DNA from: a virus
Lineage: Duplodnaviria > Caudoviricetes
DNA: 64,000 nt
Reading direction: 5' to 3' (one strand)
IMG/VR virus record: IMGVR_UViG_3300022555_000003
Span: 128,001-192,000 of that record
A model generated the notes under the pieces. It was not told the origin of the DNA. It made no database searches and saw only the letters and a program-made list of their open reading frames with translations. Each line of letters begins with the position of its first letter. The stretch's first letter is position 1. This document shows, one piece after another, positions 322 through 58,617 of this stretch. A program made the translations under genes and the position numbers.

Positions 322-1026
322 ATGCGAATAAAAGAGCTATTAATGGAAGGTGGTAATGTATTTGATGGCACAACTCCATTTAACCACAACGTAATTCCAG
401 ATATTTTGAAGATTATTAATGGAGCCTTAAAGGAAACTGGAATCAAAGTTATTCCCGTTGGGTCTGGTGCAACTCCAACTCCAGGAAAAATTAGTAACGA
501 TCTAGACGCAATGGTAGACGAAGCTGATGTACTTGCTTATTTTAAAGCTGCTGATGCTAAAACTGGAAGGCAAGCATTAGGTAAATTCTTAAAAGCTAAA
601 AATTTAGACGTTACACTCAATGGTGTAAATGTCCACGTTAAAGTCCCAGTTGGTGATGAATTTCATCAAGTTGATTTAATGGTAGTTCCAAACGCAAGCA
701 AGATAGCAAAATTTCACACACATAAACTTCCAGCTAATAGTCCATTCAAAGGTGTTAACAAACAATTGATGTTGGCTATCTTAGCTAAAGAACATAACAT
801 GATGTGGTCGGCCTGGCAAGGACTTTTTTCAAGGAATGCTGAAGGTAAGAAAGACAAATTTTTAGGTAATGATATTGATCAAATTGCGAAGTTATTATTT
901 GGAAAAAATGCAACTGGTGCTAATTTAGATTCAGTTGAAAGTATTTTGAAGTCATTACCAAAAGATAAAGCAGACAGCTTATTAGCAAAATGTAGATTAG
1001 ATCCAAATTGGAAAGAAATCAAATGA
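322..1026 (+). CDS. Pol-beta superfamily nucleotidyltransferase-like protein with MxIxE leader
   Basis: VGSG...NDLD and later QVDLM motifs; start moved to MRIKELLMEGG just after the late promoter. Confidence 0.6.
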   Translation: MRIKELLMEGGNVFDGTTPFNHNVIPDILKIINGALKETGIKVIPVGSGATPTPGKISNDLDAMVDEADVLAYFKAADAKTGRQALGKFLKAKNLDVTLNGVNVHVKVPVGDEFHQVDLMVVPNASKIAKFHTHKLPANSPFKGVNKQLMLAILAKEHNMMWSAWQGLFSRNAEGKKDKFLGNDIDQIAKLLFGKNATGANLDSVESILKSLPKDKADSLLAKCRLDPNWKEIK

Positions 1027-1382
1027 AGCTAACTGAAATTAATCCGCCAGGAAAGATGTTAGAAAATTTCTTGAGCTTTGCTAAAGATAAGCTTAAACTA
1101 ACTAAGCTACCAAAAATACAATTTAAAGAAAAAGCAAAAGATGTTAACAGCTTTGGTTACTATGATGTTGGAACTGATTCAATTGTTATAGCAATCGAAA
1201 AACGCCACCCAATGGATATATTTAGAACACTTGCTCATGAATTAGTTCATCATACGCAACGTATGAATAATGAAATTAATAATAAGAGTGGGCAAACTGG
1301 TAGTCCACAAGAAAATGATGCAAATTCACTAGCTGGAGTGTTAATGCGTGAATTTTCTAAAAAGTATCCTGAATATATTTAA
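1023..1382 (+). CDS. zincin-like metallopeptidase with MxLxE leader
   Basis: TLAHELVHH (HExxH) plus downstream ENDANSLAG; starts MKLTEI overlapping the previous stop. Confidence 0.65.
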   Translation: MKLTEINPPGKMLENFLSFAKDKLKLTKLPKIQFKEKAKDVNSFGYYDVGTDSIVIAIEKRHPMDIFRTLAHELVHHTQRMNNEINNKSGQTGSPQENDANSLAGVLMREFSKKYPEYI

Positions 1383-2491
1383 CGTTTAGCTCTAGTTTTA
1401 ACTGGTTCTGGATTTTGTTGTTTACGTGCTGTCTTTGTGACACTTAGATCTTTTGGCTTACTTGGTGCGCCTGGTTCAGTAGCAATAGCTTTGCCAGCTT
1501 TTGCAGTTCCAACAATATCAATCTTAGGAGAAACGCTACCTTCTGGCCCCCACAATTGAATACTTTCAACTTTTACATTATTGATATTTTGTGTGTAATC
1601 ACTAAAACATAATGATGTTTGTGTAGTTGTTCTAATACATAACATCAGCTCAAAATTTGAATATGTTTTATAATTTTCAAATATAGCTACAGCCCAAGCT
1701 TTACGTAATTCAGGTTCAGAACCACTCATTATTTGTTTTCGTAATGTATCTGTTATGCTTGTATCTTTTACAAATTTAAAAGTTGATTTAACTATAACAT
1801 CTGCTACTTCAGCTTTTTGTTTTGATTTTGGTCCATAAGTATCGCGAACAGTTATCCATCGTGGACCAGTTAAACTTGCTTTTGATTCTTCAAGTTCAGC
1901 AAATAATTCAGGATAATTTTTTTCTAATGATCTAGATATGCTTGTCATATCAAGTTTAGCTTTTCTAGGATCACCCCATCTCCCACCAGACGTAATTGAA
2001 TCTTTTAGTTCAACATGTTTAGAATTGATAACTAAATCGCCACCACCCGATTTACTACCAATGCTTGTAATATTTGGACTAAGAACAGATAGTGCTAATT
2101 CACCAGGACCAATTCCTTGAGCAGTTATTACATTCAATTCATTAAATATTTTTAATGCAAACGGATCAGTAATTATATCACTTAAATTTTGAATTTTATT
2201 GAGAGTAAGTAATTTACTGATGTTGATGAACCCTTTTGAGTAATTATCAACAAATCTAGTCTTATCTTCTAAAGTTCCTTCAGTTTGTACTATTACCTTA
2301 CTTAGATGATTAAAAATCTTACTAGCATCAGGATCTGCTTTTAATATAGTAGACAACCTAGTAAGTAATGTTCCAGATTGCAAAGTAGAAGACACTTTTT
2401 TCAAAAGTGAAATATCTGTTTCTTTCTCTACACTTTGTTTGATATCTTTTTTTAGATCTGCTAAGTTTTCGTCAACTTCGAATATTCTCAT
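1379..2491 (-). CDS. hypothetical late protein with possible PD-(D/E)xK nuclease-like core
   Basis: GPGELAL...GGDLVINSKHVELKD resembles a D...ExK nuclease motif; MRIFEV leader; GATAAATA at 2497-2504. Confidence 0.45.
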   Translation of the reverse strand: MRIFEVDENLADLKKDIKQSVEKETDISLLKKVSSTLQSGTLLTRLSTILKADPDASKIFNHLSKVIVQTEGTLEDKTRFVDNYSKGFINISKLLTLNKIQNLSDIITDPFALKIFNELNVITAQGIGPGELALSVLSPNITSIGSKSGGGDLVINSKHVELKDSITSGGRWGDPRKAKLDMTSISRSLEKNYPELFAELEESKASLTGPRWITVRDTYGPKSKQKAEVADVIVKSTFKFVKDTSITDTLRKQIMSGSEPELRKAWAVAIFENYKTYSNFELMLCIRTTTQTSLCFSDYTQNINNVKVESIQLWGPEGSVSPKIDIVGTAKAGKAIATEPGAPSKPKDLSVTKTARKQQNPEPVKTRAKR

Positions 2492-2509
2492 ACAAGTATT
2501 TATCCAAAT

Positions 2510-3151
2510 TTACTTCTTCTTGCTATCTGTGTTATATGGATAATACGAAGAAATATTGTCAGCAATGCCAATTTTAACAGCTTCTTTAGCTTCTAAGAAT
2601 ACATCTGATGGTGGCAATAAGTGAGTTCTAATATCTTCTTCTGCTTTTAAGTTAGTACAATGTTTGATATGATTGATTAAACGTCTTTCAGTTCTTACCA
2701 TCTCTTCATTCATTGCAATTAGTTCGTGTGTTTTGCCAGATGTTCCCCAGCTAAATTGATGGCTAAGGATACTAGTATTTGGAGTTATTGTTCTGTGGCC
2801 TTTAACTCCAGCAATAAATGCAAATAATCCACAACTTGATATCGATCCAATCCCAACTGTATGAACCGGAATACTACTTCCTTTCATGACATCAATAAGA
2901 GCAAAACAAGCAGATAGGTCGCCACCTGTACTCATAATTACTAATGTTATATACTTTGGTGTTTTACCAAAGGTCTGTAAATTTTTTGATAAGATAAACT
3001 TTATCACTTTTGATACTGAATAAAAAGAAAATTCTTCTGAAAAAACATATATACCACTTTGATTTAAAATTGCGTCTGAATCTAAGTCTAATGAAATTTG
3101 ATTTTCAAAATATTCATCTTCTATGTTTGCTTCTACTCTGTTAGGCATCAT
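2510..3151 (-). CDS. clpP: ClpP-like protease subunit
   Basis: MSTGGD, GSISSCG (Ser), ILSHQ (His), DVFLEAKEAVKIGIAD (Asp). Confidence 0.9.
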   Translation of the reverse strand: MMPNRVEANIEDEYFENQISLDLDSDAILNQSGIYVFSEEFSFYSVSKVIKFILSKNLQTFGKTPKYITLVIMSTGGDLSACFALIDVMKGSSIPVHTVGIGSISSCGLFAFIAGVKGHRTITPNTSILSHQFSWGTSGKTHELIAMNEEMVRTERRLINHIKHCTNLKAEEDIRTHLLPPSDVFLEAKEAVKIGIADNISSYYPYNTDSKKK

Positions 3152-57398: not shown

Positions 57399-57407
57399 TA
57401 CTTTCCT

Positions 57408-57884
57408 TTATCCAATATACTTTTCTAATTTATTGCCGTCTGCTTGTTTTTTATATCCTAATCGTTCATAAAATGATTTGGCTGTTGAAGTTAACACTAT
57501 TTTCTTAACTCCTTTTATTTTAGCTTCTTTTTCTAACGCATTTATAACTTGTGATCCAGCGCCCCTTTCAATGGATCCAACATTCATAATTTCCGCTTCA
57601 GTTGATTTTCGTGGGATCCACATTGATCCAGCTGCTACAATCTTATTATTTAAAATAACAAATGCTGTCCTAATGTTAGCTCGCTGTGATAAAGGTGCAT
57701 TGATTTGTATTTCTAATACTGTACTAATATGACATAATGCAGCATATTCATGATTTTCTTCGCCGTTTTCTTCCAATTCAGCTATTCGTTCATCAACTTG
57801 TTTAATTGATTGACGTGCAATATTATCAGACAGATTAATGCCAGTTTGTACATTTTCTTTTAATATCATTTCTGTTATTTTCAT
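57408..57884 (-). CDS. GNAT acetyltransferase with MxIxE leader
   Basis: RGAGSQVI..LE..AK..G...L...FYERLGY. Confidence 0.8.
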   Translation of the reverse strand: MKITEMILKENVQTGINLSDNIARQSIKQVDERIAELEENGEENHEYAALCHISTVLEIQINAPLSQRANIRTAFVILNNKIVAAGSMWIPRKSTEAEIMNVGSIERGAGSQVINALEKEAKIKGVKKIVLTSTAKSFYERLGYKKQADGNKLEKYIG

Positions 57885-58264
57885 TGCTTTTCTTTTTTCA
57901 CAAACGAATTTACAGGACTTCGTTTGTTTACTGTTGTCGATTCTTCACTTTTGGTTGTACTAATTTGCTTAATTGCACTTTTACCTGGCATCATTTTCAA
58001 AGCTAGTTTAATTGTTTCTTCATCTTCTGGACATTGTGTTGAGATAAACATATTCTCACCAAATATTGAGTCTTCTACATTAGTTTTTGGTAAAACTCCT
58101 GCTTGCAGAGCCCTTGCACGAGCAATAGCCATTCCCATCCTATATTGAAAATATGGGTCTTGATTGGTTAACTCAGGCAGAATAAATGCAGCAGGCAAAG
58201 CTCTTGCTACATCAATTTGAATACTACCTTCTCCACTTTCGTTTAATATTTCCTTAATAGTCAT
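57881..58264 (-). CDS. late hypothetical protein with MxIxE leader
   Basis: MTIKEILNES; DPY..YR.GMA.A. Confidence 0.65.
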   Translation of the reverse strand: MTIKEILNESGEGSIQIDVARALPAAFILPELTNQDPYFQYRMGMAIARARALQAGVLPKTNVEDSIFGENMFISTQCPEDEETIKLALKMMPGKSAIKQISTTKSEESTTVNKRSPVNSFVKKEKQ

Positions 58265-58617
58265 TTAAAGTTTCCTGGATTCTTAGATTTATTGAAAAAG
58301 TCAGCAGTAACTTTATCACTTACATTAACTGGCTTATTCTCTTTTTTGTGAACTACATATGTTGGGTGTGGCAAATTTAATTGATGTGCTAATATTTTAC
58401 TTGGATTACCATAATATGATTGTTGTCCAATTCTAACGCTTATATCATTTATCCTTTGTATTGGAATATAAACTGATAGATTTCCTTTTGTATAAACATG
58501 CTCGTTATTTTGAACTCCATCATACATATATCCGTTGTCAACAAGCATATTATTCGAAATGACCTGATTGGCTGTCATCTTTCCAATTTTTTTGACACTA
58601 ACTTCACAAATTTGCAT
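58261..58617 (-). CDS. late hypothetical protein with MxIxE leader
   Basis: MQICEV; GATAAATA at 58624-58631. Confidence 0.6.
   Translation of the reverse strand: MQICEVSVKKIGKMTANQVISNNMLVDNGYMYDGVQNNEHVYTKGNLSVYIPIQRINDISVRIGQQSYYGNPSKILAHQLNLPHPTYVVHKKENKPVNVSDKVTADFFNKSKNPGNFK

Follow-up and report, generated by a model that had tools for sequence, protein, structure and literature searches.

Why should eight phage proteins that share no similarity along their lengths begin with almost the same six residues? The question is raised by a 64,000-nt window of a virus record from IMG/VR (bases 128001-192000 of 242,080 bp; G+C 33%; CheckV completeness 74%), in which eight starts follow the pattern M-[KRTQ]-[IL]-x-E-[ILVM]. 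A first-pass annotation had read the pattern as a capsid-targeting tag on enzymes that are packaged in the phage head and injected into the host. The motif is probably the N-terminal part of a head-targeting leader of the prohead-protease type, that is, this lineage's version of the T4 capsid-targeting sequence (CTS) and of the Alt and gp24 propeptides. The earlier reading receives partial, indirect support: what stands of it is a protein-level tag on unrelated enzymes whose genes share an upstream motif with virion genes, the likeness to the T4 CTS, the presence of S77 proteases in the clade, and the enrichment of leader-like starts among the virion proteins of the relatives PA5oct and Atu_ph07.

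Re-reading of the window sequence confirmed all eight N-termini (Table 1), and BLAST detected no similarity among the eight proteins, in agreement with the first description. The [IL]-x-E element occupies residues 3-5 in 8/8 leaders, and a second phi-x-E (phi, hydrophobic residue) follows within 14 residues in five of them; the further motifs LLME, IME, LKE, LNE and MLE are present as reported. The functions proposed for the carriers were supported by Pfam for the NUDIX protein, the CCA-adding enzyme (PolyA_pol and HD) and the GNAT acetyltransferase, while the zincin assignment is weak and the nucleotidyltransferase (NTase)-like protein, together with three other tagged proteins, gave no Pfam match. 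The start of the NTase-like gene is ambiguous, as the public gene call uses a GTG at 286; position 322 is favoured because orthologues begin M-x-L-x-E-GGN and because a promoter-like motif lies at 309-316. A near match at 17995 (MRVEEI), suspected earlier to be accidental, has a GTG start and is not called as a gene, and is probably due to chance.

The tag is far more widespread than eight proteins. Among the 381 genes that we called on the whole 242-kb record, 17 have a start matching the strict motif (18 counting the start at 322), where 1.45 are expected from position frequencies, and the relaxed motif matches 27. Glutamate is found at residue 5 in 55/381 proteins, whereas each of the other positions from 2 to 16 has it in 16-32, so that the excess is approximately 30 proteins; hydrophobic residues peak at positions 3 and 6. 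The earlier count of eight carriers is thus an undercount: the tag is on approximately 30 proteins, most of them outside the window, and these represent 12 or more unrelated families. One family, in whose alignment R, S-N-S and E columns are invariant, accounts for about half of the carriers (about 15-20 paralogues); the others are the CCA/HD enzyme, the NUDIX protein, two GNATs, the NTase-like and zincin-like proteins, a DUF6934 protein, a zeta-toxin-like kinase fusion and several proteins without assigned function. Variant starts (MKINDLLLES, MKITDLMEA, MRSHEFIVES, MRSSEFITEE) occur in the same clusters. A position-specific scoring matrix derived from the strict matches contributed few further members and is circular. 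The median isoelectric point of the leader proteins (7.5 versus 6.0) was given no weight, and genome-wide motif counts for the relative G001, in which the gene caller found only 123 genes, are unreliable.

Could such an excess arise from a loose motif, chosen afterwards and inflated by chance and by the common descent of one large paralogous family? The 15-20 paralogues point in this direction, as do relaxed-pattern copies of an HNH gene (MIFSEF, MTFSEF), which are surely unrelated to the tag. However, at least 12 families remain when one start per family is counted, where approximately 1.4 starts are expected, the strict motif follows internal methionines in only 3/1263 cases, and the glutamate excess at residue 5 remains. 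Paralogy or chance was consequently rejected as a full explanation; it is close to refuted, and we assign it a negligible probability.

The tagged genes lie in units headed by GATAAATA, as the first-pass annotation had stated: the motif was found at all three of the places given, and all eight genes belong to such units. In the whole record GATAAATA occurs 65 times, versus 18 times for its reversed control. Sheath-like, virion, tube, structural and terminase genes have it 5-27 nt upstream of their starts, in very many cases at a distance of exactly 5 nt, and the spacing seen at 322 recurs before the tail sheath-like, tube-adjacent and terminase genes. The leader genes thus share a signal with virion genes and are presumably expressed late; sigma-70-like promoters in the operon region were not above shuffles. 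At approximately 20 genes, including virion and terminase genes, GATAAATA stands exactly 5 nt before the ATG with no Shine-Dalgarno sequence in between (e.g. 309-321, 2492-2504 and 58618-58631), and were the motif a late promoter of the T4 type, the late transcripts of these genes would be (nearly) leaderless.

This arrangement suggests that the shared start might reflect translation or mRNA constraints on late genes, such as (near-)leaderless mRNAs from GATAAATA-N5-ATG, and not a protein signal. The exact 5-nt spacing at many genes, including three of the eight, and the A-rich N-terminal codons fit such an explanation. However, the leader occurs in only 9/53 motif-preceded genes, and the motif is directly upstream of only 9/33 leader genes. 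Since so few motif genes have the leader and most leader genes are internal to operons, the leader is not a product of the GATAAATA context, and late-mRNA context was rejected as its cause on these counts. Moreover, five of the eight genes are operon-internal with overlapping stop and start codons, sheath, tube and terminase genes behind GATAAATA lack the tag, and at 26-60% identity the residues are kept in orthologues from phages that differ in G+C content. The Arg, Leu and Glu codons of the leaders vary synonymously, which indicates that the constraint acts on the peptide. An origin in the mRNA is accordingly regarded as very improbable.

A protein signal of this form has an obvious counterpart in T4 (NC_000866), where ipII and ipIII start MKTYQEFIAEA, ipI MKTFKEF..ITEA, alt MELITELFDE, gp24 MAKINELLRES and gp21 MNEPQLLIE. 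The gp21 protease cleaves after L/I-x-E, the first 10 residues of internal protein (IP) III are enough for packaging, residues 4 and 7 of the CTS target while residues 8 and 10 direct processing, and the shortest and longest propeptides of T4 virion components have 7 (Alt) and 65 (gp23) residues (PMC9026906). Like the T4 CTS, the leader described here is short, N-terminal and carried by unrelated proteins, has a basic residue 2 and a hydrophobic-x-Glu-hydrophobic spacing, and ends in or adjoins an L/I-x-E site of the gp21 type. When MRIKELLME, MTIKEILNE, MRSHEFIVE and MRSSEFITE are aligned to MKTYQEFIAE, conserved hydrophobic residues fall on T4 positions 4, 7 and 8 and glutamates on positions 6 and 10. 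A virion-protein family of the record (genome 19496), homologous to PA5oct gp282, which is detected by mass spectrometry (MS), starts MKTFTQYLSES, comparable to T4 MKTYQEFIAEA and MKTFKEF, and keeps MK[ST]F..[YF]L.ES down to 26% identity. The leader is also similar to the very short propeptides of Alt and gp24 (approximately 7 and 10 residues; MELITE then L, MAKINELLRE then S), which sit on a packaged enzyme, an ADP-ribosyltransferase, and on a head protein. Unlike the T4 CTS, the eight leaders are one residue shorter before the first glutamate, which is locked at residue 5, and many of the leaders lack a second glutamate at position 9-10. The tag is furthermore on approximately 30 proteins instead of three, and the cargo consists mostly of enzymes of 120-490 residues instead of small basic proteins. 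The fixed position of Glu5 goes beyond protease specificity alone.

In the phiKZ-like giant phages, a group unrelated to the phage here, propeptides are long with several cut sites and have a small residue at P3 (S/A/G-x-E), not Ile or Leu, and we know of no fixed N-terminal tag described for them. Many head-internal proteins of these phages (201phi2-1, phiKZ and SPN3US) are cut C-terminal to glutamate by a diverged gp21-like protease (PMC9026906). Leaders of the present kind are not mentioned in a 2026 review of jumbo phages. In another uncultured phage, an 88-aa protein (contig L123:19944-20210) starts MKLYREFIAED, near-identical to the IPII/IPIII CTS MKTYQEFIAEA, and MKSFMAFLTES is the start of the CCA enzyme on that contig.

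Conservation of the leader is most extensive in the CCA/HD enzyme. Nearly all of its homologues (n=111) have a leader of 8-12 residues, e.g. MTIKQLTES, MKSFKAFLLES or MIKLKDLLMEG, and counting back from the GG motif glutamate is at -27 in 102/105, L/I/V at -29 in 102/103 and S/G at -26 in 91/111. The enzyme encoded here is approximately 20-21 residues longer at its N-terminus than bacterial CCA enzymes of known structure; as these begin approximately 21 residues later, the core that they share with it starts shortly after the conserved phi-x-E site. In the window's enzyme this ancestral site (MIME-SS) is combined with a lineage-specific cap, MKIFEI, and the NTase-like protein, of whose homologues 96/120 start M-x-L-x-E-GGN, has the same two-layer build (MRIKE and LLME-GGN). 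A NUDIX orthologue at 44% identity starts MKINEL. On a 248-kb T4-like contig the CCA gene is positioned between a Gp23/S77 head module and gp13, and its neighbours carry the same type of leader. The window itself contains 14 tRNA genes (14406-25776), and the 3' CCA is encoded in only five of them (Tyr, Thr, Gly, Asp and Gln); the remaining nine require a CCA-adding activity such as that of the window's own enzyme.

The source of the record is an uncultured jumbo myovirus with a T4 core from the neighbourhood of PA5oct and Atu_ph07, distantly related to both. This placement is based on its split DNA polymerase, which is 43-44% identical to the polymerases of the jumbo phages Phosso, PA5oct and Atu_ph07, and on its sheath, tube, gp4-like head-closure, gp13-like and gp15-like genes, which match PA5oct and T4. 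A blastn search of window 55000-59000 against GenBank phages gave no match. The polymerase (window 51473-54362) is divided over two adjacent genes of 550 and 403 aa, where PA5oct has one gene of 803 aa; in a relative (locus L024) the polymerase frame (741 aa) runs on past the aligned part and an HNH-like gene is next to it.

In these relatives the motif can be set beside the head genes. Peptidase_S77 exceeded the cut-off in PA5oct, in two IMG/VR relatives and in the 248-kb contig L124, and a gp21 homologue has been reported in Atu_ph07 (Attai et al. 2018). The capsid, protease, scaffold and gp67-position proteins of relatives begin with L-x-E motifs, with starts such as MSQLLNERW..ALLEG and MSNRLFESNW..ALTEG for the capsid protein, MLYLREHL..VVLES and MARQLYEY..IIIEH for the protease, and MLLREFVYF and MKINDIITEG for the small gp67-position protein. 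Within one lineage, the leaders of cargo and of head-core proteins share one type.

Leader-like starts are enriched among the virion proteins of both cultured relatives. For PA5oct, with MS status and starts taken as annotated in its record, relaxed leader-like starts are MS-positive in 9/18 cases versus 93/461 overall (20%; binomial P 0.0045), and those with a basic residue 2 in 7/9 (binomial P 0.0003, against the same 93/461). The DUF6934 protein of our record (MQINEL) matches PA5oct gp135 (MHLFEL), which is MS-positive. In Atu_ph07 the largest tagged family has its homologues in a tandem array, gp55-63 (tblastn E 1e-8 to 1e-18), of which each copy starts M-[RK]-W-x-Q-L-x-E or MRLFQLLE; unlike the leaders here, these have Gln at residue 5 and Glu at residue 8. 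All of gp53-65 are listed as virion proteins (Attai et al. 2018, Table S5), and gp55-63 are annotated as hypothetical, with no mention of a shared leader in the available part of that paper (Attai et al. 2018). Across gp14-65, the proteins with leader-like starts are MS-positive in 13/13 cases versus 14/39 of the others (Fisher 3e-5). The CCA enzyme of Atu_ph07 (gp18) lacks an N-terminal extension and does not appear in the virion list, which fits the idea and is not a positive test. Among the eight proteins of the window, only the NTase-like one has a homologue detected in virions, Atu_ph07 gp65, to which the match is weak.

Virion association would also be expected if the tag marked structural or assembly parts of the virion (core, neck or inner head), or were an inhibitory propeptide removed by the protease, and not an ejected payload. 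The PA5oct and Atu_ph07 data do concern virion association only, head-core proteins of the relatives have the same kind of N-terminus, and several carriers lie in a neck/tail module (genome 18470 and 21320). Many carriers are, on the other hand, recognisable enzymes (CCA/HD, NUDIX, two GNATs and the zeta-toxin-like kinase) for which a structural role is unlikely, and T4 Alt and the IPs, packaged cargo that is ejected, are a precedent for the ejection of such proteins (PMC9026906). A structural or propeptide role is therefore considered unlikely. A protein signal of some other sort, i.e. a degron or stability tag, a tag for a chaperone or a membrane assembly site, or a site for an N-terminal modifying enzyme, would account for the fixed distance from Met1, which suggests recognition of a free N-terminus; a cut after Glu5 would expose I, L, V, F or M, and GNATs are among the neighbours. 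There is no positive evidence for such a signal, and it leaves unexplained both the link to the virion proteomes of two relatives and the agreement with the cleavage specificity of the protease that the clade itself encodes. We find it improbable.

The preferred reading, a head-targeting leader, can be formulated as follows. The tagged proteins would be made late, alongside the virion proteins. Their short amphipathic leader, M-[KR]-[IL]-x-E-phi, would bind the scaffolding core of the assembling prohead, so that the proteins become enclosed by the shell, and a gp21-type S77 protease would then cut after phi-x-E, with Glu5 or a second phi-x-E, located 3-14 residues downstream, as the site. Thus matured, the enzymes would stay in the head and could leave with the DNA. 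Core binding, cleavage and ejection, as well as a role of the cargo in the host as the tRNA-repair, nucleotide-hydrolysing and acetylating kit envisaged earlier, are what we infer from the analogy with T4.

Several observations weigh against this reading. Pfam searches of the whole record for S77 and Gp23 gave no match, and searches with the portal, protease, scaffold and capsid proteins of PA5oct found nothing; when T4 gp20, 21, 22, 23, 24, 67, 68, alt and inh were compared with the record's gene calls by phmmer, only sheath, gp13 and gp15 were matched. The processing enzyme of this very phage is consequently unseen and the record is without portal, protease, scaffold and capsid genes, which is where the earlier reading falls short, together with the leaderless state of Atu_ph07 gp65, found in virions. 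The gap in the head genes is most likely due to incompleteness of the record: sheath, tube, neck and terminase genes are present despite it, IMG/VR flags inverted terminal repeats, and the record is probably an incomplete or mis-joined assembly. A T4 gp55 homologue was likewise not found in the record, so that the term late promoter rests on the likeness of the motif and on the genes it precedes. The proteome lists represent virion association of proteins of relatives, not cleavage or ejection; virion preparations carry some abundant non-structural proteins, and 9/13 of the Atu_ph07 leader carriers are paralogues. The motifs behind the statistics were defined after looking. A protease site does not require a glutamate locked at residue 5, and T4 propeptides vary in length. 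The conserved M-x-L-x-E-GGN of the NTase-like family could belong to the fold itself. Finally, 9/14 tRNA genes of the window lack an encoded CCA, which gives the CCA enzyme an obvious job in the cell that needs no packaging; it may simply mature the phage's own tRNAs.

It is tempting to extend the proposal, although we do so only tentatively and regard the wider form as rather doubtful. In jumbo phages related to PA5oct and Atu_ph07, and in many uncultured huge phages of the T4-like kind, a short N-terminal 'zip code' that co-varies with the head-core proteins of the respective lineage might load dozens of enzymes into the capsid, among them the CCA/HD enzyme with its NUDIX partner and approximately 20 ADP-ribosyltransferase-like effectors, as an arsenal for host takeover and against tRNA-targeting defences. 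If so, the ejected proteome would be readable straight from sequence. Should the tag indeed direct packaging, sequence data would be enough to list what uncultured jumbo phages bring into the cell as protein, and the mechanism known for Alt and three small proteins of T4 would extend to approximately 30 enzymes per genome. The retention of the CCA/HD leader in more than 100 phage lineages suggests that tRNA 3'-end repair is needed in the first moments of infection, a point of relevance to anti-phage defences directed at tRNA. The proposal is cheap to test, since both PA5oct and Atu_ph07 can be cultured, their virion proteomes are published and they have leaders of this kind. Foreign proteins could also be loaded into the heads of jumbo phages by means of the tag, in the way the T4 CTS is employed.

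The largest tagged family resembles ADP-ribosyltransferases such as T4 Alt in its R / S-N-S / E motifs, and the fold is putative. The family gave no Pfam match, and a profile search of the PDB gave noise only. The AlphaFold2 (AF2) model of one tagged paralogue has a predicted local distance difference test (pLDDT) score of 79.7, with residues 1-32 below 50, which fits a flexible N-terminal extension. Foldseek gave weak matches for this model, the best ADP-ribosyltransferase match being pertussis toxin S1 (E ~1), and VIA-align was swamped by helical hairpins. The family has approximately 20 copies here versus one Alt in T4, which is also processed at its C-terminus. A cytidylyltransferase-like gene of the nicotinamide mononucleotide (NMN) adenylyltransferase type (genome 199803-200816, outside the window; start MNLKQLFEAS) lies within the tagged paralogue cluster, and a nicotinamide phosphoribosyltransferase is encoded at window 6111-7646; together they suggest a phage-made NAD supply beside NAD-using enzymes. 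T4 Inh is a minor head protein, and a 370-aa DUF6267 protein (genome 200817-201929, outside the window; start MRSSEFITEEE) gave a weak phmmer match to it (E 0.003).

The positions of the tagged genes and of neighbouring features are collected in Table 1. The genes from 58617 to 55174 form one tight operon of five genes, with overlaps of 4 nt; at 1023, too, the gene start overlaps the end of the preceding gene by 4 nt. A paralogue of the 127-aa protein of the operon (genome 24598-24954) starts MRLYEI. The gene pair at 62123..63405 possibly has longer leaders of a phi-L-E-[ST] type, like T4 gp24 MAKINELLRES.

Table 1. Tagged genes and associated features of the window (window coordinates; minus-strand genes start at the higher coordinate)
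Feature	Position	Strand	Leader or start	Remarks
NTase-like protein, 234 aa	322..1026	+	MRIKELLME then GGNVF	no Pfam match
Putative zincin, 119 aa	1023..1382	+	MKLTEI...KMLE	DUF6782 metallopeptidase-like (below cut-off)
Protein without assigned function, 370 aa	1379..2491	-	MRIFEVDE	
NUDIX protein, 259 aa	55174..55953	-	MRLNEV	Pfam
CCA-adding/HD enzyme, 482 aa	55950..57398	-	MKIFEI...SSMIME then SS	Pfam
GNAT acetyltransferase, 158 aa	57408..57884	-	MKITEMILKE	Pfam
Protein without assigned function, 127 aa	57881..58264	-	MTIKEILNE then SG	
Protein without assigned function, 118 aa	58261..58617	-	MQICEV	first gene of operon
GATAAATA, T4-late-promoter-like	309..316	+		5 nt before ATG 322
GATAAATA	2497..2504	-		5 nt before ATG 2491
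GATAAATA	58624..58631	-		6 nt before ATG 58617
G+C-rich hairpin, terminator-like	55161..55183			end of five-gene leader operon
Weak extra candidate, 68 aa	26131..26337	-	MKVWEVWMEG	phi-x-E-phi-phi-x-E-G
Two adjacent genes	62123..63405	-	MSNIRTLLET and MANIKKILES	start of first gene uncertain

Five paralogues of an HNH homing endonuclease (MIFSEFLDN..KHHI[IL]P) are present in the record, at window 58627-59286 and at genome 20592-21305, 80356-80835, 220932-221798 and 237159-238085. One of them is directly upstream of the leader operon, and two fit the relaxed motif while being unrelated to the tag. A second shared N-terminus, MQIKSKSGKILHT, MQIKNLEGQVL or MKIKSKSGTLLHT, is found on at least nine paralogues that are apparently pentapeptide-repeat proteins; pentapeptide-repeat-like paralogues are located at window 10203-10622 and 23168-23494 and at genome 73044-74086 and 119610-122695.

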